Shown: in pieces, positions 22,037 through 42,855 of the stretch
Layout of the letters: each line of letters begins with the position of its first letter
Position numbering within the stretch: position 1 is the stretch's first letter
DNA from: an archaeon
GTDB lineage: Archaea > EX4484-52 > WAPT01
Assembly: GCA_029258795.1 (NCBI GenBank)
Contig: JAPDKB010000002.1
Span: 64,001-128,000, forward strand
Length of the DNA stretch: 64,000 nt
Reading direction: 5' to 3'
Notes under the pieces: generated by a model
Seen by the model: only the letters and a program-made list of their open reading frames with translations
What the model was told of the DNA's origin: nothing
The model's database searches: none
Made by a program: the position numbers and the translations under genes

Positions 22037-22189
22037 GGGCCGGTGGTCTAGCCTGGAAGGACGTCGCCTTGGCATCACACAGCTTTCACGGCTGTGTGCC
22101 AGTATGGCGGAGGCCCCGGGTTCAAAATGGCTGCTTACGCCGTTTTAAGAATCGGGCAAGCTTTCATGAAAATCCCGGCCGGTCCACCA
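22037..22189 (+). tRNA. tRNA-Ala(GGC) with two introns: 37/38 (22075..22104) and 59/60 (22127..22172)
   Basis: Acceptor GGGCCGG/CCGGTCC (G3:U70) plus ACCA. BHB1 is TTGG/CCAG with CAT/TAT bulges; BHB2 is TTCA/TGAA with AAA/AAT bulges. Confidence 0.93.
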
Positions 22190-22224
22190 CATATAAATTT
22201 TTTTCTCTCCATCTTTAACTCTCA

Positions 22225-24003
22225 ATGACAAGAAAACTACCAACGATGTATGAGATAAAATCAATAAGGAATGAGACGCCTTCTATAAAGACGTTTTCAT
22301 TTCACGCTCCCGAGATAGCGAAGCTAGCAAAACCCGGGCAGTTTCTCATGGTCTGGTTGCCCGATATTGATGAAATTCCAATAAGCGTTGCCTTTGCCGA
22401 TGAGAAAAGCGGCACGGTGGAGCTGGCAATTGCAAAAGTGGGGGACTGTACATCCAAAATCCATGAGTTGAAAGAGGGTGATGTTCTGGGTTTGCGCGGT
22501 CCCTATGGTAACGGCTTCGATATTAATTATGGGATGGAGGAAGCTTGGCTCGTTGCAGGAGGGTGTGGCGCTGCCCCACTACGCTTTCTCGCAAGCAGGC
22601 TGAAGGAAAAGGGAGCGAGTGTTACAACTTTCATAGGCGCGAGAAATAGGAGTGAGCTTCTCTACCTTGCCAAGTTTAAGGAGATAGGTGAAGTTATGGT
22701 TGCCACAGATGATGGAAGCACCGGCTACAAGGGTTTTGTGACCGAACTGCTGGAAAACGAGCTCAAAAACTGCAAGCCAGACATGATTTTCACTTGCGGA
22801 CCCGAGCCCATGATGCGAAAGGTCTGTGAGGTGGCAGAAAAGGAAGGGGTAAGGGTGCAGGCATCGATAGAAAGGATGGTGAAGTGTGCAAGAGGCGCAT
22901 GCGGAGCATGCGACATTTTTGGCTTTAGGGTCTGTAAGGAAGGTCCAGTGTTCGATGGAATGTTCCTGCTCAGGACAGAATTCGGCAGGTGGAAGCGCGA
23001 CAAGAGCGGGAAGAGGATAGGGATTGCGGGCAACACAGACCTTTCCTCACCACCCATTCCCGAGTTCAGACCAACCATAAATCCCAAGCTGAGTATGAAG
23101 CTCCTCAACATCCAATTCCCGAATCCATTCATGAATGCTGCTGGTTTTGGTGTGTCCGGCATGCTTCTTTACCGCTACGTCAAAAACGGAGCTGGAGCAG
23201 TCGTTACAAAATCCGTGGGGAAGGAGGAGAGAGGAGGATTTCCCAACCCTACCTTTGGCGAGCTTGAAGATGGCACTTATTTCAACGCTATGGGTCTTCC
23301 CAACCCCGGCATAGATAATTACCAGCTTGACATTCAGGATGCGAAGAAAGCTAACGTGCCCGTTGTGGTCAGCATATTTGGACAGAGTGAGGAGGAATGT
23401 GCTTACGTGGCGTCAAAAGCCATTGAATATGGTGCAGATATGATCGAGATTAATGTTTCATGTCCTCATACGGAAATTTCAAGCGTGGAGAACGACCCCG
23501 AACTTGTGAAAAGCATAACAAGAGCTGTGGTTGAGATTGCAGGGAAAAACGGTGTGCCTGTAACCGTAAAACTATCTCCCAACGGTGATTACGTGAGCGT
23601 TGCCAAAGCCGCTGAGGAAGGAGGGGCAAGCGCCATAACCGCCATAAACACTGCACGAATAAGACCCACAATCGAGTTTGATGGCAAGGAGCTCAAAATC
23701 CTTGGAAATCCTACCGGCTATGGCGGGATGTCGGGCAGGAAGCATAAGGAAACCGGAAAGAAGGTTGTGTACGAGCTTTATGAGGAGATAAGCATACCCA
23801 TAATCGGCGTGGGAGGTATATTCAACGGCAGGGACGCTTTTGAATACGCGGCATGTGGAGCTTCACTCTTCCAGATAGGTAGCGCTATGGTCCACAGAGG
23901 CTTAAGCGTGTTTTCAGCCATCCAGAAGGAGCTTGAGGAAGAGCTTGAAAAGAATGGGTTTGAGAAGCTGGAGGATGTTGTGGGAGCTTATCACAAAAGG
24001 TGA
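22225..24003 (+). CDS. pyrKD: Fused dihydroorotate dehydrogenase electron-transfer subunit PyrK and catalytic PyrD (class 1B)
   Basis: RGPYGNGF, TDDGS, CGPEPMM and CxxGxCGxC...CKEGPV, then NAAG, TKS, NAMGLPNPG, INVSCPH, KLSPN and IIGVGGI in one ORF. Confidence 0.92.
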   Translation: MTRKLPTMYEIKSIRNETPSIKTFSFHAPEIAKLAKPGQFLMVWLPDIDEIPISVAFADEKSGTVELAIAKVGDCTSKIHELKEGDVLGLRGPYGNGFDINYGMEEAWLVAGGCGAAPLRFLASRLKEKGASVTTFIGARNRSELLYLAKFKEIGEVMVATDDGSTGYKGFVTELLENELKNCKPDMIFTCGPEPMMRKVCEVAEKEGVRVQASIERMVKCARGACGACDIFGFRVCKEGPVFDGMFLLRTEFGRWKRDKSGKRIGIAGNTDLSSPPIPEFRPTINPKLSMKLLNIQFPNPFMNAAGFGVSGMLLYRYVKNGAGAVVTKSVGKEERGGFPNPTFGELEDGTYFNAMGLPNPGIDNYQLDIQDAKKANVPVVVSIFGQSEEECAYVASKAIEYGADMIEINVSCPHTEISSVENDPELVKSITRAVVEIAGKNGVPVTVKLSPNGDYVSVAKAAEEGGASAITAINTARIRPTIEFDGKELKILGNPTGYGGMSGRKHKETGKKVVYELYEEISIPIIGVGGIFNGRDAFEYAACGASLFQIGSAMVHRGLSVFSAIQKELEEELEKNGFEKLEDVVGAYHKR

Positions 24004-25301
24004 TGGTTATGCACGAGCTTGTTATCGAGGGCAGGTTTGTAACACTTGATGGTGTGAAATCCGGTTACATCGGGATTGATGGTGACAGGATTTCTGAGGT
24101 ATCGCTTAGCGCTATAAAAGGAAAGAACAAAAAGAGGTTTGCGCAGGAGTGCCTCATTTTTCCGGGATTTATCGATATTCATGTTCACCTCCGTGAGGAT
24201 GAGAGCCGGAAGTGGGTGCATAAGGAAGATTTTAAGACAGGGAGTTTAGCAGCCATTAACGGAGGCGTGACCCGTGTTGTTGACATGCCAAACACACCAG
24301 CCACAGGCACCACAAGAGAAAGGATTGAGAACAAGATTGAGCGTGCAAGAAAAGCCAAAATTCCGGTGCAGTTTTATGGCGGTATTGCAACAAACAATCT
24401 GGAAGACCTTGAAAAAATGAAAGATGTTGTGATCGGTTACAAGGGCTTTCTTTGCCAGAGCACGGGTGATATGACCATAAACTATGAGATTCTGGAAAGG
24501 GCCATCCAGAAGATCAGAGATGCTGGTTTGCCATTAACTCTCCACTGCGAGGAGCAGAGCATGGTTGATGAACTACAGAAAAAATACGCGAACTCCAGTT
24601 TGGGTGTGCTTGCTCATCCAGAAATAAGGGCTCCAGAGACAGAGTATGTTTGCGTGGAGAAGGTGTTGAAGCTTGCGGAAAAATATGATGGTATGCATTT
24701 CAACATAGCTCACGTTTCCACGCCGGAAGCAATGGAGATGGTTGAGAAAGCTAGGGAAAGGGGGCTTAAAGTTACGTGCGAGGTTACACCTCACCACCTC
24801 TTTTTCAGCAAGAGCGCGATGAAGAAGAAAGGAGCGTATCTCAAAATGAACCCTCCTTTAAGAGACGAGGAAAGGAGGAGGAAGCTTCTGAACATGGTTA
24901 AGGAGGGCAAAGCTGATTTTGTGGCAAGTGACCATGCACCCCACACCATAGAGGAGAAGGAAAGCGAAAATCCTCCGAGTGGGGTTCCGCAGCTTGATAC
25001 CTACGGTATTTTTGCAGGGTGGCTGATCAGGGAGGAAAAACTCGACCCAGCCTTGATATTGAAAATGTGTTCCTACAACCCTGCAAGATTCCTCGGGCTT
25101 GAGGATGAGGGCAAAATAGAGGCAGGATGTAGAGCAAACCTGACCGTGCTTGACACGAAGCACAGTATTAAGGTGGAGAATGATATGGTTAAGAGCAAAT
25201 GCGGATGGACACCATTCGATGGCTTAACATTTCCATCATGCGTCGCTGCTGTAATGTTGAATGGTGAGGTTCTTGCGGAATATCACGAGCTCTTCATGTG
25301 A
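24000..25301 (+). CDS. pyrC: Dihydroorotase
   Basis: DIHVHLRE, DMPNT, HCEE, HVST, CEVTPHHL, KMNPPLR and SDHAPH motifs. Confidence 0.93.
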   Translation: MMVMHELVIEGRFVTLDGVKSGYIGIDGDRISEVSLSAIKGKNKKRFAQECLIFPGFIDIHVHLREDESRKWVHKEDFKTGSLAAINGGVTRVVDMPNTPATGTTRERIENKIERARKAKIPVQFYGGIATNNLEDLEKMKDVVIGYKGFLCQSTGDMTINYEILERAIQKIRDAGLPLTLHCEEQSMVDELQKKYANSSLGVLAHPEIRAPETEYVCVEKVLKLAEKYDGMHFNIAHVSTPEAMEMVEKARERGLKVTCEVTPHHLFFSKSAMKKKGAYLKMNPPLRDEERRRKLLNMVKEGKADFVASDHAPHTIEEKESENPPSGVPQLDTYGIFAGWLIREEKLDPALILKMCSYNPARFLGLEDEGKIEAGCRANLTVLDTKHSIKVENDMVKSKCGWTPFDGLTFPSCVAAVMLNGEVLAEYHELFM

Positions 25302-25414
25302 ACGACTTCTGCCGATTGTTTTGAAAAAAACGGTATAAGGGACGAAAACCTTTATATAATTCCGCATGCCTAAATAAACATAGCTAATCTTAAAACGGTT
25401 GAGGGGTGAATTAG

Positions 25415-25711
25415 ATGGCGAAGAAGGGAAAGAAGAGGTACTTTGTTTTGCTGGATGACAAGGGCAATGAAATCGGTGTCTTTACCGGAAGGCAGCCAAG
25501 ACAGGCAGCTCTTAAGGCTGCTACAAGGGGTTACACCAAAATCAGATTGAGAGAGAGGGGAACAAACAAGATCCACATCTATCAGGGTAGTAGGAAGAAG
25601 GTGCCTGCTCCAGCCAACGCACCAGAATGGATGGGTAAGGAAGTGTGGAAGCCAGTGGTTAAGAAGGTAGGAATCGAGAAGATCGAGAAGAAAAGGAAAA
25701 AGAAGAAGTAA
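25415..25711 (+). CDS. Non-histone chromosomal protein MC1
   Basis: GVFTGRQPRQAALKAA, IRLRERGT and PEWM...WKP match MC1; strong TTTATATA promoter. Confidence 0.92.
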   Translation: MAKKGKKRYFVLLDDKGNEIGVFTGRQPRQAALKAATRGYTKIRLRERGTNKIHIYQGSRKKVPAPANAPEWMGKEVWKPVVKKVGIEKIEKKRKKKK

Positions 25712-25720
25712 ATTTATTCA

Positions 25721-25749
25721 GGCGCTGACAACATAAGATGGTCAGCGCC
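25721..25749. terminator. Hairpin between the convergent MC1 and nreA genes
   Basis: GGCGCTGAC...GTCAGCGCC 9-bp stem followed by a T-rich run on the + strand. Confidence 0.5.
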
Positions 25750-25757
25750 CCTCTTTT

Positions 25758-26984
25758 CTATTTTTTCCATGCCACAAGTGTTGTTTGCCTTTCTTTAAGT
25801 TTGTTGAGGAGCTTGCTTATGCTTTTGAGATGGAGATTGCACTTCATTTCATTTTCAACGATTTTGATGGCTTGTTCCACACTTTCCATGATTCGTGGTT
25901 TCGTTCTCATCGCTTCCCTCACAGTTTCCCTGACCACCCACACACCCAAAGGAGCCCAGTAGTCCGGCAGGATTTCCCTCACAATCAGCACACTCGCCTG
26001 CCTTTTTATCTTTGCAAGATGTTCCAGCACGGCAAGACGGGAAGCGTAGTAACCACCAGCGGTCTCATCCACATACTTTTTGCGGGAGGTGAAGTCCTCG
26101 TAATCCTTTGTGATGTAATACCTCTTTCCAAATTTCTTCCACTCGCCAATCGGGTGGGCTATTTCCACCAGCTCGAATTTCCATGTGGAGGGAAAAAGCA
26201 GAACCCAGAATCGATTGCCGTTGTACTCAGCATAGTGAATCATCACGGAATCCACCACATCATATTGCCTTATCTCATTGATGAAGTGCTTCCCCAGCAT
26301 GTCATCCACAGCCGTTATGCTCCACCTCGTGGGAACGAGCTTCCTCTGCTTTTTCACGCCCAGCATGCCAACAGAAAGCACCCTTGAGAGTACGTTTTCA
26401 TCCACACCTCTCACATAAAGTTCAACTAAGGCATCGGTTGCTTTCAGGTCGGAATCGTAATATGCTTTCTCCACCCTTCTGTCAACTTTAGGATTTTCCG
26501 CGAGCACCATTCTTTTCAATTTACCCCTCAACCCCACAGGAGAAAAAACGTAGGAAAAGTTAACCTCTATGGATGGTTTTTTCATGAACTCCACTTCTGT
26601 TAGCACGCTTCTCCTTGCCATCGCAATTTCGTGCACCATCTCCACAAGTTTGGAAGGGGTTTTAACACTTGTTTTGAAAGCGGGATTTATCATGCTCAAC
26701 CTCTTGGCAAGTACTGAGGCGACATCCAGCTTCTGCGTGAACCAGAGGCGTGGAGCATCATAGTATTCAGGAGAGTTATCCTTAACGCCCAGCGCACCAA
26801 CATTAACAGCAGGATACCCGAATCTCCCCACAAAGACAGAAGGAGGGGTGTAGAGCTCATCCCTCTCCTTTATTTGAGTTGCCCTCTCCTTCAGCTTCAG
26901 CGCTTCCACGAAGTAGCACGGCTTTCCGCAGAGGTTTTTACCCTTGCATTTAACACAGAGCGCGGGGTCTATTATCTTGCCCAT
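25758..26984 (-). CDS. nreA: Archaeal DNA repair protein Nre
   Basis: N-terminal CxxCKG..LCG..C, PPSVFVGRFGYP, RKLVPTRWSITAVD, GGYYASRL, C-terminal PIP-like QTTLVAW. Confidence 0.92.
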   Translation of the reverse strand: MGKIIDPALCVKCKGKNLCGKPCYFVEALKLKERATQIKERDELYTPPSVFVGRFGYPAVNVGALGVKDNSPEYYDAPRLWFTQKLDVASVLAKRLSMINPAFKTSVKTPSKLVEMVHEIAMARRSVLTEVEFMKKPSIEVNFSYVFSPVGLRGKLKRMVLAENPKVDRRVEKAYYDSDLKATDALVELYVRGVDENVLSRVLSVGMLGVKKQRKLVPTRWSITAVDDMLGKHFINEIRQYDVVDSVMIHYAEYNGNRFWVLLFPSTWKFELVEIAHPIGEWKKFGKRYYITKDYEDFTSRKKYVDETAGGYYASRLAVLEHLAKIKRQASVLIVREILPDYWAPLGVWVVRETVREAMRTKPRIMESVEQAIKIVENEMKCNLHLKSISKLLNKLKERQTTLVAWKK

Positions 26985-27076
26985 AGGGAAATGTAGGGCG
27001 CGCAGTTTTTAATTAGTAAAACCAAAACTAGGACATATCCAAAAATATTTAATAGTGTTATCCCAATTCATCTCCT

Positions 27077-27357
27077 GCGGCAGGGCTAGGCCGGGGAGCT
27101 AGCCCCTCCCTGTAACCGCAAACGGGCTAACGGCGGGGCCGAAAACCGGGGGGCGGGCGATTGGCGGCTCGCTGGGCAGCTTGCTGCTGAACAATGACTC
27201 TCTGCCCCCGAAGGCCGCTGTACCGGTGAACCGGGTCAGGCCCGGAAGGGAGCAGCCCTAAGCCGGTACTTCGGTGCTTCGGGATCAGCGGAGAGGAGGT
27301 AGGCAGCATCTCTGCCCGCGAGCTTAGCCGCGCTCCACCCCCGGGAAGCCCTGCCGC
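27077..27357 (+). ncRNA. Archaeal SRP (7S) RNA
   Basis: Terminal helix GCGGCAGGGCT/AGCCCTGCCGC, Alu-like GCTAGGCCGGG...CTGTAACC, helix 8 GGTCAGGCCCGGAAGGGAGCAGCC; TATA upstream. Confidence 0.93.
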
Positions 27358-27385
27358 GTAATTTTGCAAAAGGGTGTGGAGTTGC

Positions 27386-28189
27386 ATGAAGCGCGAGAAA
27401 AGGAGTATGACCGCAAGAAGGGTGGAGATGGTTGTTTTTATTTTGCTTGTGTTCGCTTTCTCACTTGGTCTTATGATGGGAAGCGCAGGTTATCTTGCAG
27501 AACTCATGATTAAAAGTGGTTTGGAGCAGCAAAAAGAGGTTAAGAGTGTGGAGGAGCTGACGGGGAGCAGAGCTTTTGAGGGTAACAACACCGCAAGCGT
27601 GACTATACCTGCTGTTATGGCAAACGATACGGGAGTTTACGCAACTCTCGTTGTAAGGGCCGTGCCTGGAACCGGAAAGATTTTCGTGCAGATGAACAAC
27701 TTGCTTGTGAATGATGACACGCAGCAGTCCATAAGGAAAGCGGCACTGGTGGCTTCAAAGCTCGCGGATGTCAATCTAAGCACCGTTGATCTTTATTACG
27801 AGATTAACGCCCCAGCCACCGAGCTTGAAGGAGGGAGTGGAGGAGCAACAATCGCTGTTGCGACTTATGCAGCACTTACCGGCAAGAAGCTTCGAGACGA
27901 TGTGATGATGACCGGGAGCATAAATCACGATGGCACGGTGAGCATAGCGAGCAAGGTGATAGAAAAGGCAAAGGTTGCAGAGAGTTTGGGGATGAAGTAC
28001 TTTCTCGTGCCCAAAGGCATGAAAATGCTTTACGATTACAAGCCCACAACTTTTTGCTATGAGTGGCAAGATGGTGTGGAGTTCTGCGATACAGAATACG
28101 AGCGCGTCAAAACAGAGCTTTGGAACTTGAGCGTTGAAGTCGTGGAGGTAAGCACGCTTCGGGAAGCTCTGAAGTATTTTTTGGAGTGA
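27386..28189 (+). CDS. Membrane-anchored Lon-like S16 serine protease (COG1750-like)
   Basis: N-terminal TM, DTQQSIRKA, EGGSGG (catalytic Ser region), MTGSINHDG, EKAK. Confidence 0.8.
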   Translation: MKREKRSMTARRVEMVVFILLVFAFSLGLMMGSAGYLAELMIKSGLEQQKEVKSVEELTGSRAFEGNNTASVTIPAVMANDTGVYATLVVRAVPGTGKIFVQMNNLLVNDDTQQSIRKAALVASKLADVNLSTVDLYYEINAPATELEGGSGGATIAVATYAALTGKKLRDDVMMTGSINHDGTVSIASKVIEKAKVAESLGMKYFLVPKGMKMLYDYKPTTFCYEWQDGVEFCDTEYERVKTELWNLSVEVVEVSTLREALKYFLE

Positions 28190-28275
28190 TAAGTTTTTGC
28201 AAGAAATTGCCAATATTATGCAAAAACTGTGAAATCGAAAACTCAGAACTTTAAACATTCTTGAGATCCATGAAT

Positions 28276-28409
28276 TGGCGCCGCGGGCCGGATTTTCACT
28301 TCTCAAAGAGCAGGTTTCCTCTTTTATTCCCAGCTCCGCTTCGAACCGGCGCGCCCTTGCGGGCAGTGGCTCTCGAGGCCACCGCACTACCTGGCTATGC
28401 GACCGCGGC
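28276..28409 (-). tRNA. tRNA-Ser(CGA) with a 47-nt T-loop intron (28293..28339)
   Basis: Acceptor GCCGCGG/CCGCGGC, G73 and CCA; anticodon arm GTGGC-CT CGA GA-GCCAC; long variable arm; TTCG/TGAA helix with AAG/AAT bulges. Confidence 0.92.
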
Positions 28410-28462
28410 GCGAAGAATACCACTACTCAATTAACATACTATTGGGTGGAGCTTTAAAATCT

Positions 28463-28912
28463 TTACTCCTTGATCTTCTTCTCAAACTCCAGAATCTGGT
28501 GTTTGAGCCTCACAAGCACATCGGTGGTTTTGCTGAGCGATTCCTTCAACTTCTCCTTTTCTTTCTCAAGCTCTTTTATCTCTTCCTCTAAGGTTGCTTT
28601 TTCAGCGGTAAGCTTTGCGACTTCATCCTTCAAACTCTTCAGTTCTATCTCCATCTGTTCCTTTTCCTTTGTTAGCTTGCTGACCTTCTGGCTCAGCTCT
28701 TTTCTCGTATGCTCAAGCTCTTCAACCTCAAGCTTCAGCTGTTGCTCTTCCGTGGTAAGTTCCTTCAACTTGTTTTCAAGCCGCTTTTTCTCTTCCTTTA
28801 TCTTTATTGCTTCTTCTATGCTTTTTTCAAGCACATCCAGAATGTTCGCGAGCTCTTTCTCATACTCCCCAGACATCTGCGCTTCTTGTTTCTTGGAACC
28901 TCCGTTTCCCAT
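28463..28912 (-). CDS. Coiled-coil protein
   Basis: Continuous heptad E/K/L pattern; GGAGGTGA RBS before ATG 28912. Confidence 0.75.
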   Translation of the reverse strand: MGNGGSKKQEAQMSGEYEKELANILDVLEKSIEEAIKIKEEKKRLENKLKELTTEEQQLKLEVEELEHTRKELSQKVSKLTKEKEQMEIELKSLKDEVAKLTAEKATLEEEIKELEKEKEKLKESLSKTTDVLVRLKHQILEFEKKIKE

Positions 28913-29027
28913 TAGCTCACCTCCATCTGAAAACACTGCCTGAGAATTAAGTATTGTTCACCCCTATAAATAATTTTCGAAAAAATACTCAAAAAATATA
29001 ATAGGGTGTTTCACCACAAAACAACTC

Positions 29028-30014
29028 ATGGAAATTCAGTACACTTACGAGAACCTGAACTGGATAATACTGACAGCAGGGATCATAATCATTCTACACC
29101 TTCTCGTGCTGAAAAAAAGCAGGGAGCGCGTGATTCTCTTTGCAAATTACGAAACGCTCAGAAAGGTTACTGGAGGTGAGCTAATACATCGCAATCTTGT
29201 GCCTCTTACCCTAAGAGTTCTGGCAGTTATATGTCTTTTGCTCGCGATTTCCAACCTAAAGATTATCGTGATAAAGCCGGTTTCCGATGTGGACTTCGTC
29301 ATTACAATAGATACTTCCCCCACCATGCTCAGCTCTGATGGAGGCAATTTCACCCCCAGCAGGTTGGAAGTGGCTAAAATGGCTGCCGAGCAGGTTGTGG
29401 ATGTGCTGCCCGAAACCACCAAGGTGGGTGTAGTAACATTTGCGGGCAAAGCCAAATTGAAACTTCAACTCACCAACAATAAAGAAGTCATAAAGAAAAC
29501 GCTTGATTCCATCTCTCTTGAGGGGCCTGCGGGCACAGCCATTGGTGATGCAGTAATTGTGGCCTCAATGCTCCTCTCCAACTCAACCAAGGACAAAAAG
29601 GTTGTGGTGCTGATCACAGACGGTAAATCGAATAAGGGCGTATCTATCAACGAATCCGCAAAGTTCGCCCTTGACCATGGTGTGCGCGTCAACGCTATAG
29701 GTGTGGGAAAAAAGAACGTCACTGTGCCCTTCAACATTACAGAGCTGAATTTGACCGAGCTAATCAACGAAAATGCCACCATTTATATGGGAGAGGCGCT
29801 GGATGAACAAGCCCTGCAGTACCTTGCAAACATGACGGGAGGCAAGTACTTCTACGTTCAGAACAGCACGCAGATGCTGGAAGCTTTCAAGGAATCCGTG
29901 CTGAAAGCCAATGCCGTTGAGCTGAATGTGAGAAAGTGGGCCATAATTATTGGCGTCATACTTCTCATTCTCGAATGGGCGCTTGGCGCAACCAAATACA
30001 AAACTTTACCCTGA
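29028..30014 (+). CDS. BatA-like von Willebrand factor A membrane protein
   Basis: N-terminal TMs, MIDAS DTSPTM, GTAIGDA, LITDG and TGGKYF motifs, C-terminal TM. Confidence 0.88.
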   Translation: MEIQYTYENLNWIILTAGIIIILHLLVLKKSRERVILFANYETLRKVTGGELIHRNLVPLTLRVLAVICLLLAISNLKIIVIKPVSDVDFVITIDTSPTMLSSDGGNFTPSRLEVAKMAAEQVVDVLPETTKVGVVTFAGKAKLKLQLTNNKEVIKKTLDSISLEGPAGTAIGDAVIVASMLLSNSTKDKKVVVLITDGKSNKGVSINESAKFALDHGVRVNAIGVGKKNVTVPFNITELNLTELINENATIYMGEALDEQALQYLANMTGGKYFYVQNSTQMLEAFKESVLKANAVELNVRKWAIIIGVILLILEWALGATKYKTLP

Positions 30015-30018
30015 AAAA

Positions 30019-31014: not shown

Positions 31015-31149
31015 GCAAGATGATTTGGTTAAGCTTCCCTAAAAAAGTTTCTCTAATTTTGTGGCTCTGAGATTAAGTATCATAACTTCGTTCACCGAAA
31101 AATATATATAGAATGTTAATCCAATTTTAAAGTAATTCGGTTGGGTGAG

Positions 31150-31767: not shown

Positions 31768-31773
31768 TAAGGG

Positions 31774-31986: not shown

Positions 31987-32005
31987 TAATTGAGAGGTGG
32001 ATTAA

Positions 32006-32467: not shown

Positions 32468-32491
32468 ACCTTTTATTTTGTGGTGTTGAGT

Positions 32492-33136: not shown

Positions 33137-33153
33137 TTTTTTTTAGTTTTAAG

Positions 33154-33588: not shown

Positions 33589-33590
33589 TT

Positions 33591-34265: not shown

Positions 34266-34322
34266 AAATTTTTAAGAGTGAACAACATTCTTAAAATTAT
34301 AATAACTACAGAAAGATAGAGG

Positions 34323-34898: not shown

Positions 34899-34905
34899 GT
34901 TGAGA

Positions 34906-35310
34906 TTATTGTTGCTTCTTCTTTTTTTCGTACTCCTCAATAAGCTTCTGTAACCCTTCAACAGCCATTTTTGTGCAGTGGACCTTTACTGGAGGCAATC
35001 CACCGAGCTCCTTAACCAGCGATTCGTACGAGAGTTTCTTCGCTTCTTCAATCGTTTTTCCCTTTGCAAGCTCCGCCAGTATGTCGCTGCTTGCTATGGC
35101 TGCAGCACATCCAAATGTTTTGAATTTGATGTCTTCAATTATCTCCTTATCTCCCTCTTTCCTGACTTTCATTGTGAAGCTCATCACATCTCCACACACA
35201 GGATTTCCAACTGTCACTTTGGCATCTGCATCCTCAATTTCTCCTGTATTTCTGGGATTGCGGAAGTGTTCTATGAGCTTCTCAGTGTAAACATCACTCA
35301 ATATTATCAC
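34906..35310 (-). CDS. iscU: Fe-S scaffold IscU/NifU
   Basis: HFRNPRN, GNPVCGD, FGCAAAIAS and LPPVKVHC motifs. Confidence 0.95.
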   Translation of the reverse strand: MIILSDVYTEKLIEHFRNPRNTGEIEDADAKVTVGNPVCGDVMSFTMKVRKEGDKEIIEDIKFKTFGCAAAIASSDILAELAKGKTIEEAKKLSYESLVKELGGLPPVKVHCTKMAVEGLQKLIEEYEKKKKQQ

Positions 35311-35323
35311 CCCTCTTTATGTT

Positions 35324-36496
35324 TCACCCTTTCCATAGCGGCGAGATTTCACGCAACTTATTAACGACTTCCGGAAAGACCTCGAGGAAATAATCCACAT
35401 CCTCATCCGTGTTGAATCTTCCGGCACTTATTCTGATTGAGCCATGCGCTATCTCCGGCCTCAACCCTATCGCTATGAGGACGTGGGACGGCACGAGCTT
35501 GGTGGAAGAGCAAGCGGAGCCAGTGGATACCTCTATTCCGTACTCATCAAGCATCATGACCGTGCTCTCCCCTTCCACCCCCTCTATTGAAAAGTTAACG
35601 TTTCCCGGCAATCTTTTGTTGAGGTCAGAAGGACCATTGAGATAAACCTTTTCCAATCTGCTTGTAATACCTTCTATTATCCTCTTCTGAAGTCTTCTCA
35701 ACTTTTCCTTGTCCTTGCTCACTTCCTCCATAACAAGCTCTGCGGCCTTCCCCATACCGACTATACCCGCAACGTTCTCCGTTCCTGACCTCCTGCCCTT
35801 TTCCTGTCCACCTCCATGCAAGAGAGGGTCGATTTTCACACCGTTCCTGATGTACAAAGCGCCTATTCCTTTCGGAGCGTAGAATTTGTGCCCGCTTATC
35901 GTCATCAAATCCACGCCCAGCTCTTCAACATCCACCTCCGTCTTACCAATTGCCTGACACGCATCCGTATGGAAGTACGCGTCGCTTTTTTCCTTTACAA
36001 TCTGGCACGCTTCCTTCACGGGTTCAAGCGTACCTATCTCATTATTGGCAAGCATTATGGAAACGAGAATTGTATCCTTCCTAAGCGCGTTCTCCAGCTC
36101 TTCCAAGTTTATGAACCCTTCCTTATCCACCTTAAGATACGTGATGTCAAATCCCTGCTTCTCAAGCCACTTGCATGTGTTGAGTATGCATTTGTGCTCT
36201 ATTGGTGTGGCGATTATGTGCTTTCCTTTATCCTTATTGGCAAAAGCAACCCCTTTCAATGCCCAGTTGTTGCTTTCAGTACCGCCGCTGGTAAAGTAAA
36301 CACCACCATCCTTACAGTTTATCATCTTCTCCACCTTTTCCCTGGCATCCTCAACAGCTTCTCTGGCTTCCCTTCCCTTTCTGTGAACATTGTTTGGATT
36401 ACCCCATTTTTCCTTTAGAAAGGGCAACATAGCATCCAAAACTCTCGGATCAACGGGTGTGGTTGAGTTATTGTCCAGATAAACATATCTGTTCAT
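35324..36496 (-). CDS. iscS: Cysteine desulfurase IscS/NifS
   Basis: YLDNNSTT, TSGGTESNN, SGHKFYAPKG, GGGQE..RRSGTEN and STGSACSS motifs. Confidence 0.95.
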   Translation of the reverse strand: MNRYVYLDNNSTTPVDPRVLDAMLPFLKEKWGNPNNVHRKGREAREAVEDAREKVEKMINCKDGGVYFTSGGTESNNWALKGVAFANKDKGKHIIATPIEHKCILNTCKWLEKQGFDITYLKVDKEGFINLEELENALRKDTILVSIMLANNEIGTLEPVKEACQIVKEKSDAYFHTDACQAIGKTEVDVEELGVDLMTISGHKFYAPKGIGALYIRNGVKIDPLLHGGGQEKGRRSGTENVAGIVGMGKAAELVMEEVSKDKEKLRRLQKRIIEGITSRLEKVYLNGPSDLNKRLPGNVNFSIEGVEGESTVMMLDEYGIEVSTGSACSSTKLVPSHVLIAIGLRPEIAHGSIRISAGRFNTDEDVDYFLEVFPEVVNKLREISPLWKG

Positions 36497-36561
36497 GGTG
36501 AGTTCACCTATAACACTGTTATACAAAAAGCTTATATCGTAAAAATTTATAAATGTGTGTA

Positions 36562-38121
36562 TCAGAGAAACGCGCTCACATCCTCCTGCTTTTTCTTCTT
36601 TTCCTCAACCCATTTTCTGACCGCATCTTCCAGCGTGTCCTCAAACAAACTTGCACTGCATTTCCTCTTCCTGATTTTAACGAACACAGGGACATTCACA
36701 GCTTCTCCAACCATCACCGCTTCTCCCGGCTGGAGGGAGGTTATGAGTTCAAGCGCTTCTCTCGTGAGACCTTCCGAACTCTCCTTTATATGATTGAGGT
36801 CGTTCGGGTTTGTTATTCTCATTATGATGTGTGTGTTGCACTGTGCAAGTGCTGTCTGTGAGAGATAGTAGGGGCGCTGAGACACGAGGCATAGACATGC
36901 ATAAAACTTCCTTCCCTCCCTTGCCAGCGTTTCTATGGGCTCCTTTGCCAGCGCTTCATATTTGCTGGCTATAGAAGGGACAAAATTATGTGCTTCCTCC
37001 ACCACCAGCAGGAACGGAGGAACGACACCAGTTACTCTCATCCTGAAAAGCTGCTGTGTGAGGAGCCGCACAATCAGCAGCTTCTTTCTCACGTTTTCCG
37101 TATCGCTCAGATCTATCACGTAGAGATGTGCATGCATTATATCCCTCAGGTTTGGATACGCAACTTTTGAAAACAGGTTTAAGGAAGCAAGAGCGTTCAT
37201 TATTTCTTCCCCCACTTCTCGCTCCTTCTTCTCCAACCCCATGGAATCAAGATTTGCAAGCACGTCTTCCACATCATAACTGCCGTGTTCTTTGAAAAAC
37301 TCTCTTACTTTTGAAATGAAGGAGGATGCTGCCCTTCTTTTTTTGTCTTTTAAGTCAGGAAAAAGCAGTTTTATGAGCTCGACATCCACCACGTCAGTAA
37401 GGGAAAATGACACCTCCCTACCTTTAATTACTGTTGTCATTCTAGCATAATTTGCATCTTCCGCATAGACAGTGTATTCTCCGTGGGGGTCCACAACCAC
37501 CACAGCCGGAACATATCCTCCGTTTTTAGCGATGTCGAACAATTCTTCTATGATCACACTTACCGTGTGGCTTTTACCAGCTCCAGACATCGCAAGAATC
37601 GCAAGGTGTTTCCGAAGCAGTTTTGTCGGATCAACCACCAGGTCTACCTCAGGCTGGAAAAGGAACTTACCGAGCTTAATCCCCGATTCAGCCGTACCTG
37701 TCAGCTTTTTCACATGGTTTGGTGGAGATGGCACCACTTTATCTCCAGGTATGGGTGGAGAAAAACACTTGACGAGATAAAAATCACCATCTCCTTCTTT
37801 TATTTCCCCGATAATTCTGGCATTAGCATATACGGATTGCCATCTCTGCAGATAGGAGCTGCTGCTTGAACTCTCATCAAGCATGTCCGTCATAACAACT
37901 TTATCTTCCATATAGGGGTTATATGCAACTATATCTTCAACAACTGCAACGATTCTATGCCCACGAGAGGTAAGGACCTCCACATACTGATTCTTTCTCA
38001 CTGTATTCATTTCATCTTCATTCTCCTTTATCACGAAAGTAAGGTTTGTGGTGGATGGAGACTTTTCGGCTGACACCACATATCCTATGACTTGATCATC
38101 TTGTAACTCTTTCCCTTTCAT
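36562..38121 (-). CDS. herA: HerA-family bipolar DNA helicase/ATPase
   Basis: HAS-barrel N-terminus, HLAILAMSGAGKS, VDPHGEY, EEAHNF, AREGRKF and SQRP motifs. Confidence 0.9.
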   Translation of the reverse strand: MKGKELQDDQVIGYVVSAEKSPSTTNLTFVIKENEDEMNTVRKNQYVEVLTSRGHRIVAVVEDIVAYNPYMEDKVVMTDMLDESSSSSSYLQRWQSVYANARIIGEIKEGDGDFYLVKCFSPPIPGDKVVPSPPNHVKKLTGTAESGIKLGKFLFQPEVDLVVDPTKLLRKHLAILAMSGAGKSHTVSVIIEELFDIAKNGGYVPAVVVVDPHGEYTVYAEDANYARMTTVIKGREVSFSLTDVVDVELIKLLFPDLKDKKRRAASSFISKVREFFKEHGSYDVEDVLANLDSMGLEKKEREVGEEIMNALASLNLFSKVAYPNLRDIMHAHLYVIDLSDTENVRKKLLIVRLLTQQLFRMRVTGVVPPFLLVVEEAHNFVPSIASKYEALAKEPIETLAREGRKFYACLCLVSQRPYYLSQTALAQCNTHIIMRITNPNDLNHIKESSEGLTREALELITSLQPGEAVMVGEAVNVPVFVKIRKRKCSASLFEDTLEDAVRKWVEEKKKKQEDVSAFL

Positions 38122-38246
38122 AAAGAGAGATGTTGCACGTCAAAATTTTTAAACAGAATATACCCTCTCGACATATTTGCAGTCGCAACTTTTATATATG
38201 GGCAAATCCATAAACATCAGTAAGCTAAGCCCAAAGAGGTGAGTGA

Positions 38247-38675
38247 ATGATGGCAAGGAAAGGTATATCTCCATTGATAGCGGTAGTGTTGCTCGTGGTC
38301 TTTACAGTGGGTATTAGTGTAGTGATATCCAGCTGGCTGAGCAGCTATGCCAAGCAAACCACAGAACAGGCAGGACAGGGCACACAGCAGGCCATAGAGT
38401 GTGCAAAAGCTGTGGTTGACATAACCGATGCAACGAACAACGGCGTGTTTGTGGCAAATGTGGGTGCTACAGACATAACGGTTACGAGATTATACCTCTA
38501 CGACGATAACAACAATATCTGTTCGCAGGATGTGAATCAGAACCTCCAGATAGGAGAAGAAGTGTACATCAACTATAACTTCACAGGATGTCCTGCAGGC
38601 TTTAACAGCGCAGCACTAACAAAGGTCAGAGCAGTGACGAACTGCCCAGGAGTAACAGATGAATACACTTACTAA
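38247..38675 (+). CDS. Archaeal type IV pilin
   Basis: RKG^ISPLIAVVLLVVFTV; own TTTATATA promoter and GAGGTGA RBS; T-rich terminator after the stop. Confidence 0.88.
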   Translation: MMARKGISPLIAVVLLVVFTVGISVVISSWLSSYAKQTTEQAGQGTQQAIECAKAVVDITDATNNGVFVANVGATDITVTRLYLYDDNNNICSQDVNQNLQIGEEVYINYNFTGCPAGFNSAALTKVRAVTNCPGVTDEYTY

Positions 38676-38805
38676 CCGACAAAAATTAGAAAGCAAGATT
38701 TTTCCTCTTTTCTTCTTTTTCATTTATTTTGTGGAGCATCCCATACGGAGTTTCAAAAACTTTAAATACCTTATTGCAATTATAAGAAATATCATCTTCT
38801 GCAGA

Positions 38806-38929
38806 CCCGCCGTAGCTTAGTCTGGTAGAGCGCTCGGCTGTAGGTCTGTGCCGCGTGGTATGGCGCAGCCACGCAGCCAGTTGCTCAGAAACCGAGAGGT
38901 CCCCGGTTCGAATCCGGGCGGCGGGACCA
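38806..38929 (+). tRNA. tRNA-Tyr(GTA) with a 47-nt canonical intron (38844..38890) and an intact T loop
   Basis: C1:G72 acceptor CCCGCCG/CGGCGGG plus ACCA; CTCGG-CT GTA G^...^A-CCGAG; TTCGAAT uninterrupted. Confidence 0.92.
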
Positions 38930-40860
38930 AATTGAAAATGCTAGATTTTTCATAACAAACATGTATTCAAAATCCAATCGGTAATTTTTTATAAGTAAAA
39001 ATGAACGGATATGAAAGGGGATTTGAACACTTCTGACTGTTCAAGAAATATTCTGAAAAAGATTAGAAATATTTCCACCTTATCTATGAGACCACAAAAC
39101 TTATTAAGCACTTTTTGACGAATTATGAGAAAAGCTAGTTATTTAGAAGTGAATAACTCATTTTGTAAAGGACTCCCCACAAAAGAAATTAGAAACACAG
39201 AGGGAAAATTAAACATTTTTTACAAATGGTCTATTAAGTAATGAATGAGGAAACTACCCAAAGGGTGAGTTAGGAATATTCAGCTTTTTGTACAAATATG
39301 CGCAACTTTCTCCTTTACATATTTCTTTTATAATTTTTAATGAAGAGTCGTTACACCTGAAAAATGCTATCTTATATTCAATTGGAGATTCTAAAAATTC
39401 TTTCTCAGAATATACCACATGTATCTTTTTATTTGAATAGAATGCAATTGGAGGACAATTTCCAATACAGACAACTTCAGGAATATTAGTGGTGTTGAGA
39501 TAGAGACCCATTTCTTTAGTAACATATCTTAATCCTTGCTCAAATTCTATTTGAGGAGTGTAACATCTTTGGTATTGTGTAATTAAAAAAGAAAATGAAA
39601 ACAGAATAAAAAATGAAAATATAATAAAGAATATTGGGCGATCCAACTTAAAATATTTTCCAAACTCTACAAAAAAATAAGATATGAAACACACTAGAAA
39701 AGATACCAGAAGAAGAAAAAACCTTTCTACTTCCCAAGGAATTGTAGGAGGCTTCGCAACATTTCTAAAAACTATACTTGAAGAGTATACAAATAGTGTC
39801 AAAGAGGCATAGATTAGAATAAGATTATATTTTCTTTCATATGGAGATAATTGTCTGTTGAATATTTTTTCTTTCATAAAAATAAGTATTCCAAGAAAAG
39901 AAAAAAGCACAAAACCAGTTCCTAGAGAATCGTTAAAAAGATAAACTAAAAAACTAAGCTCAGACTTGTCTCCTTCGGAAATTACATGTGATGCCTTTAT
40001 GAAGGTATAGAAAGGGTTTCCAAATTTTAGATAATTGAACAATATATACGGTAACATTCCCATGAAAAAGATAAAAATGAAGAAAAATATCTCTTTTATT
40101 TTCTTTCTTCTAATTAATTCTAGAACTAGTGGCAATATTAGAACCCAAATCAAAAGATTTGTGAATTTCATCAAAACTGCTAAACTCAAGAACAATGCAC
40201 TTGCATAAATATGTACTGGGTTTTGGTTTTTTGTTCCATAATACATAAGAATGAAACTCATTAAACCAAGAACACACGCGGGATGATCTGTAAGGACATA
40301 CCTACTGTGGAGTATGCTAAGCGGAAATATCGCAATAAGAGAGGAACTAAATCTTGCAACTCTTTCATCAAATAATTTACCTAAATAGTATACAGGAAAA
40401 ACAATTAAAGAATTAAAAAAGGCAAGAAACACTTTAGAATATACGAGATAATTTTGTGGAGATAATTTCCATATAATGGCTAAGAATAGAGATATCAATG
40501 GAGGCCTTAAAGAGATTTCTTCATACCCAATTTCTTCCCCTCCAAATAATTTTCCGTGGAGTAAATATACGGCTTCGTCCCATATCACATACGTTGTATC
40601 TATAAATGTGAGTCTCAAAAATAAAGCTATTCCAAAAATAAATAGGAGGAATGTCACATCCTTTCTGCCCATCTTCAATCTCATAATAGTTTGTTTTTCG
40701 TTCGTTTAAATTAATTATAATTATCACGGAAATTATCGACCTGTTCTCTGAAATTCAATTTATGGGATAAATGATATTAATTGAATCTAGATTTTTGGAG
40801 ATGACAAAATAAAATAAATTCGTAACGATTAAATCCAAGAGGAGAGGATAAGAGTGCTGG
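38930..40860. other. AT-rich foreign-looking islet downstream of tRNA-Tyr
   Basis: Abrupt shift to long A/T runs and AT-biased codons directly after the tRNA 3' end; boundaries approximate. Confidence 0.65.
39254..40684 (-). CDS. GT-C fold glycosyltransferase (ArnT/PMT family 39-like)
   Basis: WDEAVY after TM1, RPPL, LTDHP and KFT motifs; about 11 TM helices. Confidence 0.85.
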   Translation of the reverse strand: MRLKMGRKDVTFLLFIFGIALFLRLTFIDTTYVIWDEAVYLLHGKLFGGEEIGYEEISLRPPLISLFLAIIWKLSPQNYLVYSKVFLAFFNSLIVFPVYYLGKLFDERVARFSSSLIAIFPLSILHSRYVLTDHPACVLGLMSFILMYYGTKNQNPVHIYASALFLSLAVLMKFTNLLIWVLILPLVLELIRRKKIKEIFFFIFIFFMGMLPYILFNYLKFGNPFYTFIKASHVISEGDKSELSFLVYLFNDSLGTGFVLFSFLGILIFMKEKIFNRQLSPYERKYNLILIYASLTLFVYSSSIVFRNVAKPPTIPWEVERFFLLLVSFLVCFISYFFVEFGKYFKLDRPIFFIIFSFFILFSFSFLITQYQRCYTPQIEFEQGLRYVTKEMGLYLNTTNIPEVVCIGNCPPIAFYSNKKIHVVYSEKEFLESPIEYKIAFFRCNDSSLKIIKEICKGESCAYLYKKLNIPNSPFG

Positions 40861-40911
40861 CATTATGATATAATTACCAGAAGTAGGTTTAGAAGCGCCT
40901 TCTCATTTTCA

Positions 40912-42336
40912 TCATTCAATCATTATCTCAGAACTTCTGGTTCTTATCTTTCTTCTTCCAACCTGTGCTCGCACTTCTACTGGTGGAAGCTTTATTTTGC
41001 CCTCCACGTGCAAAAGCGGCTTTATTTTGTAAGCGAGCACCTTCTCCTCTCCCGGTTTCAAACTTGCGAATCTCCACACTATTCTTGTCTTTCCATGCAA
41101 TTTTTTGATTTCCACGGGCTTTCCAGCCTCAAATTCTCTTATCACCTGGAACATTCCGGGCACGTCATCCACGACTTCAACGTTCTTAAGCGTGCGTTTG
41201 CCACGGTTTCTTATGGTTACATAAACTTTGTGTATGTCCTCATGTCTCCTGTGTTTTTTATGCACACGCGGATATTGCACGACCTCAAAAACAATGAAAA
41301 AGATGATAAGTGCAGCCAGAATCATGAACAAGAACGGCCAGTAGTTTATTCCGTATCGTATCGTGCATGATTCAAGCGGTTTTAGTTTGCATTCCCACAC
41401 GAAATAAGTGCTTCCATCCTCCTCCACAATCTCTGGCTTGGTGATTATTATGTACGCAAAGTCAGGATATCTTTTTGGTTCTTGAATAGTGAATGTTCCT
41501 TCCTCATTACCTTTGTTGGTTACAGTTATGATTATTTCTTTCTCCATGAACTTTTTCTCCACTGCTTTGGATTTATCCATCACAGCTTTGCTCTCGATGG
41601 TAAAGGATGTTCTTTTTTCATCCAGCGTGTCACCTATATCATCAACGAGTTTTGCCACCACACTATATTCTCCCTTTGCTTTATACGGATCGAGGGTGAA
41701 GTTGAAAGTCAGTAACTTTGTCTCGTTGACCTTTAGATCAGGCACACGTTTTTTCGCAACTTCTTTGCCAGTTATACCTTCAACCTCAACAACCACGTAG
41801 ATGTTGTAGCCTTCTGTGCTCTCAGAACCCTCGTTTTTGACACCCACCATAACCGTTATCGGCTCGCCCATCGAATAAAGTTGCTTGGATGTTTCGAGCT
41901 TTTTCATCACGAGCTTTATAGATTTTTCCACGTAGACAGTGTCTTTAATTTCTATTTTCTGAGCATGATTATTTTTGTTCCTGACTATAATTATGAACTG
42001 GTAAAGACCGGACGGTGTTCCTTCGGGAGGAGAGATGGTGATGGAGACCTTTTTAGTTTCATGGGGCGCAAGTCGCAGGTATGATGGCTCGACATTATAC
42101 CACGCGATCTGAGAAGCGCTCAGAAGCACCTCCAGTTCTAAAGGTGTGTCTTCAAGGTTGGTTATAATCGCGGTGTATTTTACGCTTTCAGGTGGTTTGA
42201 CAACCTTCACATCCGCTAAAATTTTCACCTGAAACGGATTTGTTTGAGAAAAACCAACAGGCATCAGGTTAACTATGAAAATCCCCAGCACCGCGAATAG
42301 CAAAATATACCTCTTCACATCGCTCCCCTCAATCAT
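40912..42336 (-). CDS. Surface protein with Ig-like (CARDB/NEW3-like) repeats, TM helix and C-terminal DUF11-like domain
   Basis: Signal peptide; repeated (I/V)xNxG motifs; LKPGEEKVLAY; ATGA overlap with the upstream gene. Confidence 0.72.
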   Translation of the reverse strand: MIEGSDVKRYILLFAVLGIFIVNLMPVGFSQTNPFQVKILADVKVVKPPESVKYTAIITNLEDTPLELEVLLSASQIAWYNVEPSYLRLAPHETKKVSITISPPEGTPSGLYQFIIIVRNKNNHAQKIEIKDTVYVEKSIKLVMKKLETSKQLYSMGEPITVMVGVKNEGSESTEGYNIYVVVEVEGITGKEVAKKRVPDLKVNETKLLTFNFTLDPYKAKGEYSVVAKLVDDIGDTLDEKRTSFTIESKAVMDKSKAVEKKFMEKEIIITVTNKGNEEGTFTIQEPKRYPDFAYIIITKPEIVEEDGSTYFVWECKLKPLESCTIRYGINYWPFLFMILAALIIFFIVFEVVQYPRVHKKHRRHEDIHKVYVTIRNRGKRTLKNVEVVDDVPGMFQVIREFEAGKPVEIKKLHGKTRIVWRFASLKPGEEKVLAYKIKPLLHVEGKIKLPPVEVRAQVGRRKIRTRSSEIMIE

Positions 42337-42524
42337 TCTGTGGGCGAGTAGTAGCATCTCTTGGGAACACATACCAATCCTTTCTTTTTAAGCTTGCTCA
42401 TTATTCTGGACACCTCCTTGACTTCCATCCCCGGCATTCTGGCCACTTCTCCCGGTCTAACGGGTTTGCCAGCTTTTTTCATGGCGTCCAGCAACAACTT
42501 TTCCTCCTCGCTTATGTTGCTCAT
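42333..42524 (-). CDS. Small winged-helix DNA-binding protein
   Basis: 63 aa: AMKKAGKPVRPGEVA...KEVSRIMSKLKKKGLV.PKRCYY. Confidence 0.75.
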   Translation of the reverse strand: MSNISEEEKLLLDAMKKAGKPVRPGEVARMPGMEVKEVSRIMSKLKKKGLVCVPKRCYYSPTE

Positions 42525-42670
42525 TAACTCGCCCCCACTTTACATAGAAAATTGCCAGCAAAATGATAAATATGTTTTGTCATGTTTTGAAAGAAGATGA
42601 GATTCGAAATATCGGTTAGGACCTAAGGCGGGAGTGATGGTCTAAAATTAGGAAAAATCCGTGATATGAT

Positions 42671-42794
42671 TGGAGCCCCGGCCGGGATTTTCATGGAAGA
42701 TTACTCGACCCTTAAAGCGGCGTCGAGCAGCCATTTTGAACCCGGGACCTCTTCCTTACCAGGGAAGCGCTCCACCAGGCTGAGCTACCGGGGC
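42671..42794 (-). tRNA. tRNA-Thr(GGT) with a 47-nt T-loop intron (42688..42734)
   Basis: Acceptor GCCCCGG/CCGGGGC, U73 and CCA; CTTCC-CT GGT AA-GGAAG; BHB TTCA/TGAA with AAA/AAT bulges and TGG/CCA outer helix. Confidence 0.93.
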
Positions 42795-42855
42795 GTAAAT
42801 GAAAGACATTTCAACAAACGAGACGAAATTTTAAAATAGTTTTTATGTTTTTGCG

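Follow-up and report, generated by a model that had tools for sequence, protein, structure and literature searches.

The question raised by this locus is whether a short non-coding intron has been copied from one transfer RNA (tRNA) gene into another. It concerns the tRNA-Ala(GGC) and tRNA-Thr(GGT) genes of a 64,000-nt stretch of DNA, hereafter the window, which corresponds to C2:64001-128000 (contig C2) of an archaeal genome bin of 1.17 Mb in 23 contigs (G000, 96.3% complete); coordinates without a contig label follow the numbering of the window. Each of the two genes carries an intron in the T-loop between tRNA positions 59 and 60 and, judged by sequence comparison, these introns are homologous copies of one short non-coding archaeal tRNA intron, designated family B. 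Taking the reading as a whole, we consider it highly probable that the family-B copies at 59/60 form a spliceable motif and are recent gains within a larger burst, DNA-level copying being the favoured route for this family. The genes and introns concerned are:

22037..22189, forward strand: tRNA-Ala(GGC) gene, exons 22037-22074, 22105-22126 and 22173-22189, CCA encoded; ARAGORN tRNA call once the 59/60 intron is removed
22075..22104, forward strand: canonical intron of Ala(GGC), 30 nt, position 37/38; 4-bp central helix TTGG:CCAG, 2 bases before each splice site
22127..22172, forward strand: family-B intron of Ala(GGC), 46 nt, T-loop position 59/60; strict bulge-helix-bulge (BHB) motif; family-B covariance model R1, E 6e-17
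42671..42794, reverse strand: tRNA-Thr(GGT) gene, exons 42735-42794 and 42671-42687; ARAGORN call after intron removal
42688..42734, reverse strand: family-B intron of Thr(GGT), 47 nt, position 59/60; strict BHB motif; covariance model R1, E 3.5e-19

An initial annotation of this DNA had given coordinates and sequences for both introns, and these were recovered unchanged. Its naming of the first gene as Ala(GGC) was also correct, as indicated by the G3:U70 pair read from the sequence of the acceptor stem, by the TTGG:CCAG helix of the canonical intron and by the orthologue in G001, which ARAGORN calls Ala(GGC). An ARAGORN label of Thr(GGT) for the same gene, with other intron borders, was rejected on G3:U70 and the BHB motif. 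G001 and G002 belong to the same genus as G000; both have an orthologue of tRNA-Ala(GGC) at the syntenic locus and keep its canonical 37/38 intron at the same place, with diverged sequence. The Rfam tRNA model matches the Thr(GGT) gene in its 5' exon only (42739-42794).

Homology of the two introns

Global alignment of the Ala(GGC) and Thr(GGT) 59/60 introns gave 38 identical columns out of 47 (81%), the same count as initially claimed, and a MAFFT alignment of the gene regions agreed. As the ends of such introns are constrained by the splicing motif, a core was defined as the intron minus its first 4 and last 9 nt. The two cores were identical at 26 of 34 positions, a value attained by none of 20,000 mononucleotide shuffles (z = 7.0), and their identity to the cores of the 19 other 59/60 introns compared from the same genome averaged 44%, with a maximum of 54%. 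The likeness therefore goes beyond the needs of splicing, as had been proposed. No link between the Ala and Thr introns was found by blastn-short with the intron alone, a short-word search that is too insensitive for this purpose, and nhmmer together with a covariance model was needed to connect the family-B introns. Less came of the claim that several of the differences preserve the intron stem: in the three-sequence family-B alignment, 91% of the cells of a 12-pair helix were paired, yet one pair was changed on both sides and 347 of 500 shuffles performed equally.

It might be argued that splicing constraints alone, or an assembly chimera, had produced this likeness, since the BHB motif constrains 4 nt at the start of the intron and 9 nt at its end, and since the genome was binned from a metagenome and includes at least one contig of foreign appearance. 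Such an artefact or convergence is hardly credible in view of the core identity and its shuffle test, of the position of both genes inside one 236-kb contig with flanks that are syntenic in relatives, and of the 27 genes of this genome that have the same architecture. Logan contigs of four runs from two studies, covering 23400-43399, neither confirm nor question the assembly, as no piece listed bridges the Thr gene; their loose ends at 42735-42738 match Thr-like genes that have no intron, lie in different flanks and presumably come from relatives.

The likeness is also unevenly spread over the two host genes. The exon block flanking the intron is identical in both for 12 nt before and 10 nt after the insertion, which bears out the common T arm reported initially. 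From the T arm to the 3' end the exons share 26 of 29 positions, and the 5' two-thirds share only 33 of 50 (66%). The first of these values could suggest that both genes derive from one duplicated intron-bearing gene whose identity later changed, and whole-gene paralogues of this kind do exist here, namely Leu-CAA and Leu-CAG, which have 100% identical introns and nearly identical exons. However, the 5' exons of Ala(GGC) and Thr(GGT) are less alike than their introns (33/50 against 38/47), their acceptor stems differ and the Ala gene has G3:U70, while the initial annotation had argued against recent paralogy from the differing D and anticodon arms; moreover, the syntenic orthologues of the congeners, with the same exons, lack the family-B intron and contradict this explanation, to which we assign next to no probability.

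Splicing anatomy and machinery

Both introns conform to the strict hBHBh' definition, with two 3-nt bulges, a 4-bp helix between them and flanking helices. In Ala and Thr alike, all 5 pairs of the T stem, all 4 of the central helix and both of the inner helix are formed. The central helix pairs T-loop bases 54-57 (TTCA) with an intron TGAA that ends 2 bases before the 3' splice site; the two bulges read AA|A and AA|T, and the inner helix starts with TGG:CCA in Thr and with TG:CA in Ala. Because of a run of A's, the intron border is ambiguous by sequence alone, and it is the BHB geometry that sets it at 59/60. Joined at that point, the Thr exons equal the intronless gene of G002 at 73 of 73 positions. 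Intron removal restores a canonical cloverleaf in both genes, and ARAGORN calls them only after this removal. In unconstrained RNAfold predictions the T stem and the hairpin of the intron appeared and the 4-bp central helix did not; the z-scores of folding were unremarkable, at -0.20 for Ala, -2.06 for Thr and -0.71 for Asp.

Introns of groups I and II have a ribozyme core of hundreds of bases and often carry an open reading frame (ORF) for an endonuclease or a reverse transcriptase. A self-splicing or homing intron of these groups was ruled out for the Ala and Thr genes, as their introns have 46-47 nt and no ORF, and no Rfam intron family reached its gathering score in the window.

The genome has one gene for the splicing endonuclease EndA (contig C6, L001:1216-1809), encoding a single-unit protein of 197 aa with both EndA Pfam domains (PF01974 among them). 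A tblastn search of the genome gave no clear second copy, the best other match having an E value of 0.46. Its best relatives of solved structure are archaeal EndAs, the enzymes of M. kandleri and M. jannaschii, and from its sequence it is classed as an alpha-type EndA encoded by a single gene. RtcB is also encoded (E 2e-175). In the precursor, the T stem would serve as the outer helix and the intron's own ends as the inner one; EndA would cut both bulges and RtcB would join the exons. The exon half of this motif would be supplied by the near-universal T-loop and any T stem, the intron bringing the remaining half. Because the exon half is near-universal, we propose that the same intron could be spliced in any tRNA, and that this portability would account both for the 59/60 hot spot and for the presence of one intron family in many hosts.

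As a separate observation, alignment of this EndA to the M. kandleri catalytic unit (5x89) revealed a Lys-rich insertion of ~9 residues just before the conserved His-x-Lys-Tyr. Loops near that site are described as conferring a broad substrate range in other EndAs (PMC5829648).

Intron families in the genome

In the genome scan, each of 169,267 strict BHB candidates was removed and the result submitted to ARAGORN; 10 unresolved Rfam regions were scanned with relaxed settings, and all introns were re-measured uniformly. An intron of 24-52 nt exactly at 59/60 was found in 27 of the 43 identified tRNA genes, a count that leaves out four tRNA genes of contig C11, and 16 genes were without it. After intron removal, the anticodons of Arg-CCG, Arg-CCT and Val-CAC are provisional. 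The 5-bp T stem was available as the outer helix in 27/27 of these introns and the 4-bp central helix was perfect in 26/27. The 3' ends read YGRRNN in 26 introns, the remaining one, Gly-CCC, ending in AGGAAA.

All-against-all comparison and profile searches defined two families, all of whose members lie at 59/60. Family A has ten members (Pro-CGG, Pro-TGG, Gly-TCC, Gly-CCC, Cys-GCA, Ala-CGC, Val-GAC, Glu-TTC, Leu-CAA and Leu-CAG), with the introns of Ala-CGC and Val-GAC 93% identical. It occupies class I and class II hosts, the introns of Leu-CAA and Val-GAC being 85% identical. Family B has three members, Ala-GGC, Thr-GGT and Asp-GTC, of which the Asp copy is more diverged (61-63% identical). 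The pair recognized initially was borne out, while the Asp(GTC) member, the 27-gene burst and the published precedent in the Thermoproteales had been missed.

No free-standing copy of family A or B was found by nhmmer in the genome, and the family-B covariance model recovered only three copies among 61 genomes, all of them in G000. Weak matches to the model in G027, G035 and G036 (E 2.6e-4 to 4.2e-3) were rejected, as their surroundings, inspected by eye, had no T-arm or tRNA.

Orthologous genes in related genomes

The relatives compared were the congeners G001 and G002, G003 and G015 from a neighbouring family, and G009 and G014 from another family, leaving aside the Thr locus of G026 (L011). 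The Thr(GGT) and Ala(GGC) loci of both congeners are syntenic with those of G000, and tblastx matched the flanks on both sides of the Thr gene. Thr(GGT) is intronless in G001 and G002, with 72 of 73 and 73 of 73 exon bases identical, respectively, and also in G003 and G015. In G009 (L008) and G014 (L009) this gene has inserts at the same T-loop site that are unrelated, which suggests independent gains at one site. The syntenic Ala(GGC) locus has three states: the canonical intron only in G002, a 49-nt family-A intron at 59/60 in G001, and family B in G000. Ala(CGC), which holds a family-A intron in G000, is intronless in both congeners, and Asp(GTC) is intronless in G003 and G015; no Asp(GTC) gene was found in G001 or G002. 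The sign of a late gain, an orthologue without the intron in relatives, was accordingly present for Thr, Ala(GGC), Ala(CGC) and Asp in the genomes just listed.

The difference in intron load was also marked. In the congeners, 20 pattern matches were obtained, 19 regions were examined by T-stem, central-helix and ARAGORN tests, and the one left over is an identical copy lying at the end of a contig. Each congener had 6 verified 59/60 introns against the 27 of G000. Five of them, in three Ser and two Leu genes, occur in both; the sixth is that of Ala-GGC in G001 and that of Glu-CTC in G002, these last two being of family A. The 59/60 introns of Ser and Leu are common to all three species. When pattern matches were crudely counted in 41 genomes of the order, G000 had 31 (4 in the reversed-pattern control), the congeners 11 and 9 (controls 4 and 5) and the remaining genomes 0-12.

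The same introns allowed relative dating. Orthologous 59/60 introns of G001 and G002 are 88-93% identical, and those of G000 are at most 57% identical to either, which is the background level; the orthologous Ser and Leu-TAA introns are at this background, and family A is 70-78% identical across species. As the Ala and Thr introns of G000 are 81% identical and orthologues reach 57% at most, copying between Ala and Thr would have followed the split from the congeners, provided that drift rates are similar. This date agrees with the absence of family B from the other genomes. By comparison of these loci, the Thr copy is therefore shown to be a gain in the lineage of the G000 species after the congener split, copied, as far as sequence likeness indicates, from another tRNA gene of the same genome. 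The initial proposal that an intron was copied between different tRNA genes thus agrees with a homology exceeding the needs of splicing and with Thr and Ala orthologues that lack the family-B intron.

The opposite history, in which the 59/60 introns are old in the genus and were lost in the sister species, would draw on the Ser and Leu introns common to all three species, which indicate a site long in use, and on the closeness of G001 and G002 (88-93%), such that a single loss in their common ancestor would explain both. Nevertheless, G003 and G015 also lack an intron in both Thr(GGT) and Asp(GTC), and the identity between paralogous introns (81%) exceeds that between orthologous ones (at most 57%), which calls for copying after the split in any case. 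We regard an ancestral intron as very improbable.

The pattern survey also yielded several near-identical inserts of the 59/60 type within single genomes, as in G020, G004, G030, G032 and G028 (family f3) and in G005 (f4), G025, G027, G029, G033 and G035 (f6). For example, G020 has four similar inserts of ~46 nt and G005 has two. Intron families occupying several tRNA genes may be common across the order.

Route of intron copying

The gain of the Thr intron would be one event within the burst that placed 59/60 introns in 27 of 43 tRNA genes. For family B, we propose ectopic copying between tRNA genes at the DNA level, which would be primed by the identical 12+10-nt block of T arm and acceptor and could take the form of short-homology gene conversion or of templated break repair. 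This block occurs in exactly four genes of the genome, three of which hold family B and the fourth family A. In addition, flanks are identical at 22 or more of 24 positions in all 3 family-B pairs and in 37 of the 351 pairs overall. A reverse transcriptase (RVT_1, PF00078) was not found in the 96.3% complete genome. The T-arm count and this negative search together favour short-homology DNA copying for the Ala/Thr pair, and from these sequences we infer a DNA-level route for family B as the favoured one, an RNA-guided route being less likely.

Several points weigh against the reading of family B as a recently gained, spliceable intron copied through DNA. The T-arm block was defined post hoc, after family B had been seen, so that its nominal chance of ~0.001 overstates the evidence. 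Over the 351 pairs of the 27 introns, the identity of the core was not related to that of the 24-nt flanks (Spearman -0.04, with 1431 of 2000 permutations as high). Within family A, the cores of Val-GAC and Leu-CAA/CAG are 83% identical with flanks that agree at only 14 of 24 positions, and the median flank identity of the 45 family-A pairs, 18/24, is the same as that of all 351 pairs. Homology-primed conversion is therefore not a general rule. The dependence of intron similarity on T-arm identity, initially put forward as the mark of gene conversion, thus failed across the 27 introns and was seen in family B, where three of the four block-bearing genes hold it, by a count made after the fact. 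As regards the comparison with relatives, the 6 introns verified per congener are counts that miss genes carrying a second non-canonical intron, and loss in the relatives, judged from few genomes, keeps a small probability. Finally, splicing of the 59/60 introns in the cell is predicted from their anatomy.

A different route would pass through RNA. An excised intron would be put into the T-loop of another mature tRNA by reversed EndA/RtcB action, reverse-transcribed and recombined into the gene, its target being chosen by pairing of the intron TGAA with the universal T-loop and not by exon homology. The position of 27/27 introns exactly at 59/60 fits this route, as does the complementarity of the intron half of the central helix to T54-R57; likewise, family A lies in at least four different T-arm contexts with a similarity independent of flank identity, and the mechanism of such transfers is stated to be unknown in a review (PMC4090602). 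On the other side stand the reverse transcriptase that was not found and the confinement of family B to hosts with identical T arms. Furthermore, we know of no reverse splicing by an archaeal EndA, which also counts against this route, and on balance we hold it to be unlikely.

A broader version of the same idea is that the 59/60 introns of this DPANN genus are a currently active, non-autonomous mobile RNA element. The intron's own half-motif, complementing the universal T-loop, would let it settle in any tRNA without exon homology. Family A is found independently in different class I tRNAs of each species (at least 8 genes in G000, Ala-GGC in G001 and Glu-CTC in G002), and this fits the proposal, as do its spread over classes I and II and its cross-species identity of 70-78%, set against the decay of the orthologous Ser and Leu-TAA introns to background (at most 57%). 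If true, it would imply selection for mobility or transfer between species, and an insertion guided by RNA structure, through reversed EndA/RtcB chemistry or as yet undescribed machinery, rather than homologous conversion. We consider this doubtful at present, and for family B short-homology copying of DNA is still the preferred route.

Other features of the window and of the genome bin

Besides the Ala(GGC) and Thr(GGT) genes, the window contains the following RNA genes:

35..175, forward strand: tRNA-Leu(TAG) gene, 52-nt intron at 59/60 (107-158) that belongs to no family; default ARAGORN gives wrong borders (44-121)
17687..17809, reverse strand: tRNA-Gly(CCC) gene, 49-nt family-A intron at 59/60 (17704-17752; nhmmer family-A E 0.006), central helix 3/4; called Gly(CCC) by ARAGORN after removal
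27079-27355, forward strand: archaeal signal recognition particle (SRP) RNA, 139 bits
28276..28409, reverse strand: tRNA-Ser(CGA) gene, 47-nt intron at 59/60 (28293-28339) that belongs to no family
38806-38929, forward strand: tRNA-Tyr(GTA), canonical 47-nt intron only

A 59/60 intron is therefore present in 5 of the 6 tRNA genes of the window. Default ARAGORN found one of the six, neither Ala(GGC) nor Thr(GGT), and Rfam found two, one of them partially; in genomes of this kind, most tRNA genes escape the standard finders. Just upstream of the start of the window, and 30 bases upstream of tRNA-Leu(TAG), lies tRNA-Leu(GAG) (C2:63833-64005), which has two non-canonical introns, one of ~39 nt in the variable region and one of 45 nt at 59/60. 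ARAGORN labels of Ala(GGC) or Ser(TGA) for this region were rejected, the gene being a class II Leu(GAG).

Elsewhere in the genome, tRNA-Leu(CAA) (C3:113040-113230) has a 55-nt canonical intron that is not in its near-identical paralogue Leu(CAG), with TGATGA and CTGA motifs in an arrangement like that of a box C/D guide RNA. Provisional non-canonical introns were noted at C3:79335-79379, C2:52518-52568 and C3:59006-59063; two of them lie in the D arm or D loop, of Arg(CCT) and of Val(CAC), and the third, of 58 nt, is in Arg(CCG).

Contig C11 (L073:1-9256) has intronless Thr-GGT, Gly-TCC, Tyr-GTA and Thr-TGT genes within 330 bases, a cluster of bacterial style adjoining Na/Pi symporter-PhoU, UbiB and patatin-like RssA genes. 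It is probably a bacterial contig binned by mistake, so that its Thr(GGT) is probably not a second copy in this organism. Contigs C10, C12 and C17 have a G+C content of 28-31%, compared with 41-45% in the main contigs, and no copy of an intron family; they may be foreign or derive from a mobile element.

Comparison with known intron systems

Intron transposition in the Thermoproteales was reportedly recognized by Fujishima and co-workers in 2010 from introns more than ~70% identical in evolutionarily distinct tRNA genes. The Ala and Thr introns described here are 81% identical in genes whose 5' exons are 66% identical, and they occupy the same insertion position. The primary account of that system (Fujishima et al., 2010, Mol Biol Evol 27:2233) is quoted here through the papers that cite it. 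In seven Thermoproteales, the similar introns of diverse tRNAs were read as large-scale intron transposition (PMC4033280), introns of this type have been regarded as transposable elements (PMC10714607), and the mechanism is described as unknown and supposed to act on DNA (PMC4090602). As in the Thermoproteales, evolutionarily distinct tRNA genes within the single genome G000 have highly similar BHB introns at a shared non-canonical position, with signs of recent copying. The host here is, in contrast, a DPANN archaeon and not a member of the Crenarchaeota, nearly all its non-canonical introns are at one site, 59/60, it has one alpha-type EndA gene and not an alpha2-beta2 enzyme, both class I and class II tRNAs serve as hosts, and congeners hold intronless orthologues with identical exons. 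According to PMC4390854, translocatable introns were not known from class II tRNAs, a statement contradicted here by the presence of family A in class II tRNA-Leu, as identified by sequence.

Position 59/60 is itself an established non-canonical site. Among DPANN archaea, the closest parallel is ARMAN-2 (Ca. Micrarchaeum acidiphilum), in which 59/60 introns of tRNA-Cys(GCA) and tRNA-Pro(GGG) were cut in vitro by an epsilon2 EndA (PMC3239211). Both organisms have T-loop introns at 59/60, and in both a large part of the tRNA genes is disrupted (56% reported for ARMAN-2). However, the Cys intron tested there has 13 nt and a relaxed hBH motif and is processed by a three-unit epsilon2 EndA, unlike the introns of 24-52 nt of G000, with a strict central helix in 26/27, and its single-unit EndA of 197 aa. 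The passages on ARMAN-2 in that paper report no intron families common to several tRNAs. Kaneta et al. (2018, PMC5829648) linked alpha4-type EndAs of DPANN to increased tRNA gene disruption and pointed out that incomplete tRNA sets indicate undetected disrupted genes. The combination of a single alpha-type EndA with many disrupted tRNA genes, only one of six in our window being found by default ARAGORN, agrees with that account, which differs in that its consulted parts do not describe related introns in different tRNAs. Our literature searches gave no report of intron transposition in DPANN; similar introns might be listed in the tRNA tables that supplement PMC5829648 and PMC3239211.

Presence and absence of a tRNA-Thr(GGU) intron among close relatives is also described for a Caldiarchaeum subterraneum population, in which the intron was gained via a mobile element (Sugahara et al., 2012, PMC3293823). 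That case differs in involving a 1.8-kb recombinase-bearing element and a scattered gene fragment; neither was found next to the Ala and Thr genes of G000, nor did nhmmer find free intron copies.

The type of event is thus already known from the Thermoproteales, as far as the consulted accounts go. New in this case are the lineage, the clustering of insertions at a single T-loop site, the involvement of class II tRNAs and, among congeners, fresh contrasts between presence and absence and between three states. Intron transposition is thereby extended beyond the Thermoproteales, to DPANN as well as to class II hosts. As this genome shows, strict BHB introns can occupy a non-canonical site in most tRNA genes where only one alpha-type EndA gene is present, and the load of T-loop introns differs about four-fold between sister species. 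The gain of archaeal tRNA introns is still described as mechanistically unresolved in the review cited above (PMC4090602). In this genus the events are unusually fresh, with intronless and intron-bearing orthologues having identical exons and one locus in three states among three species, and the order, source and flank requirements of the insertions become testable by comparative and population genomics.

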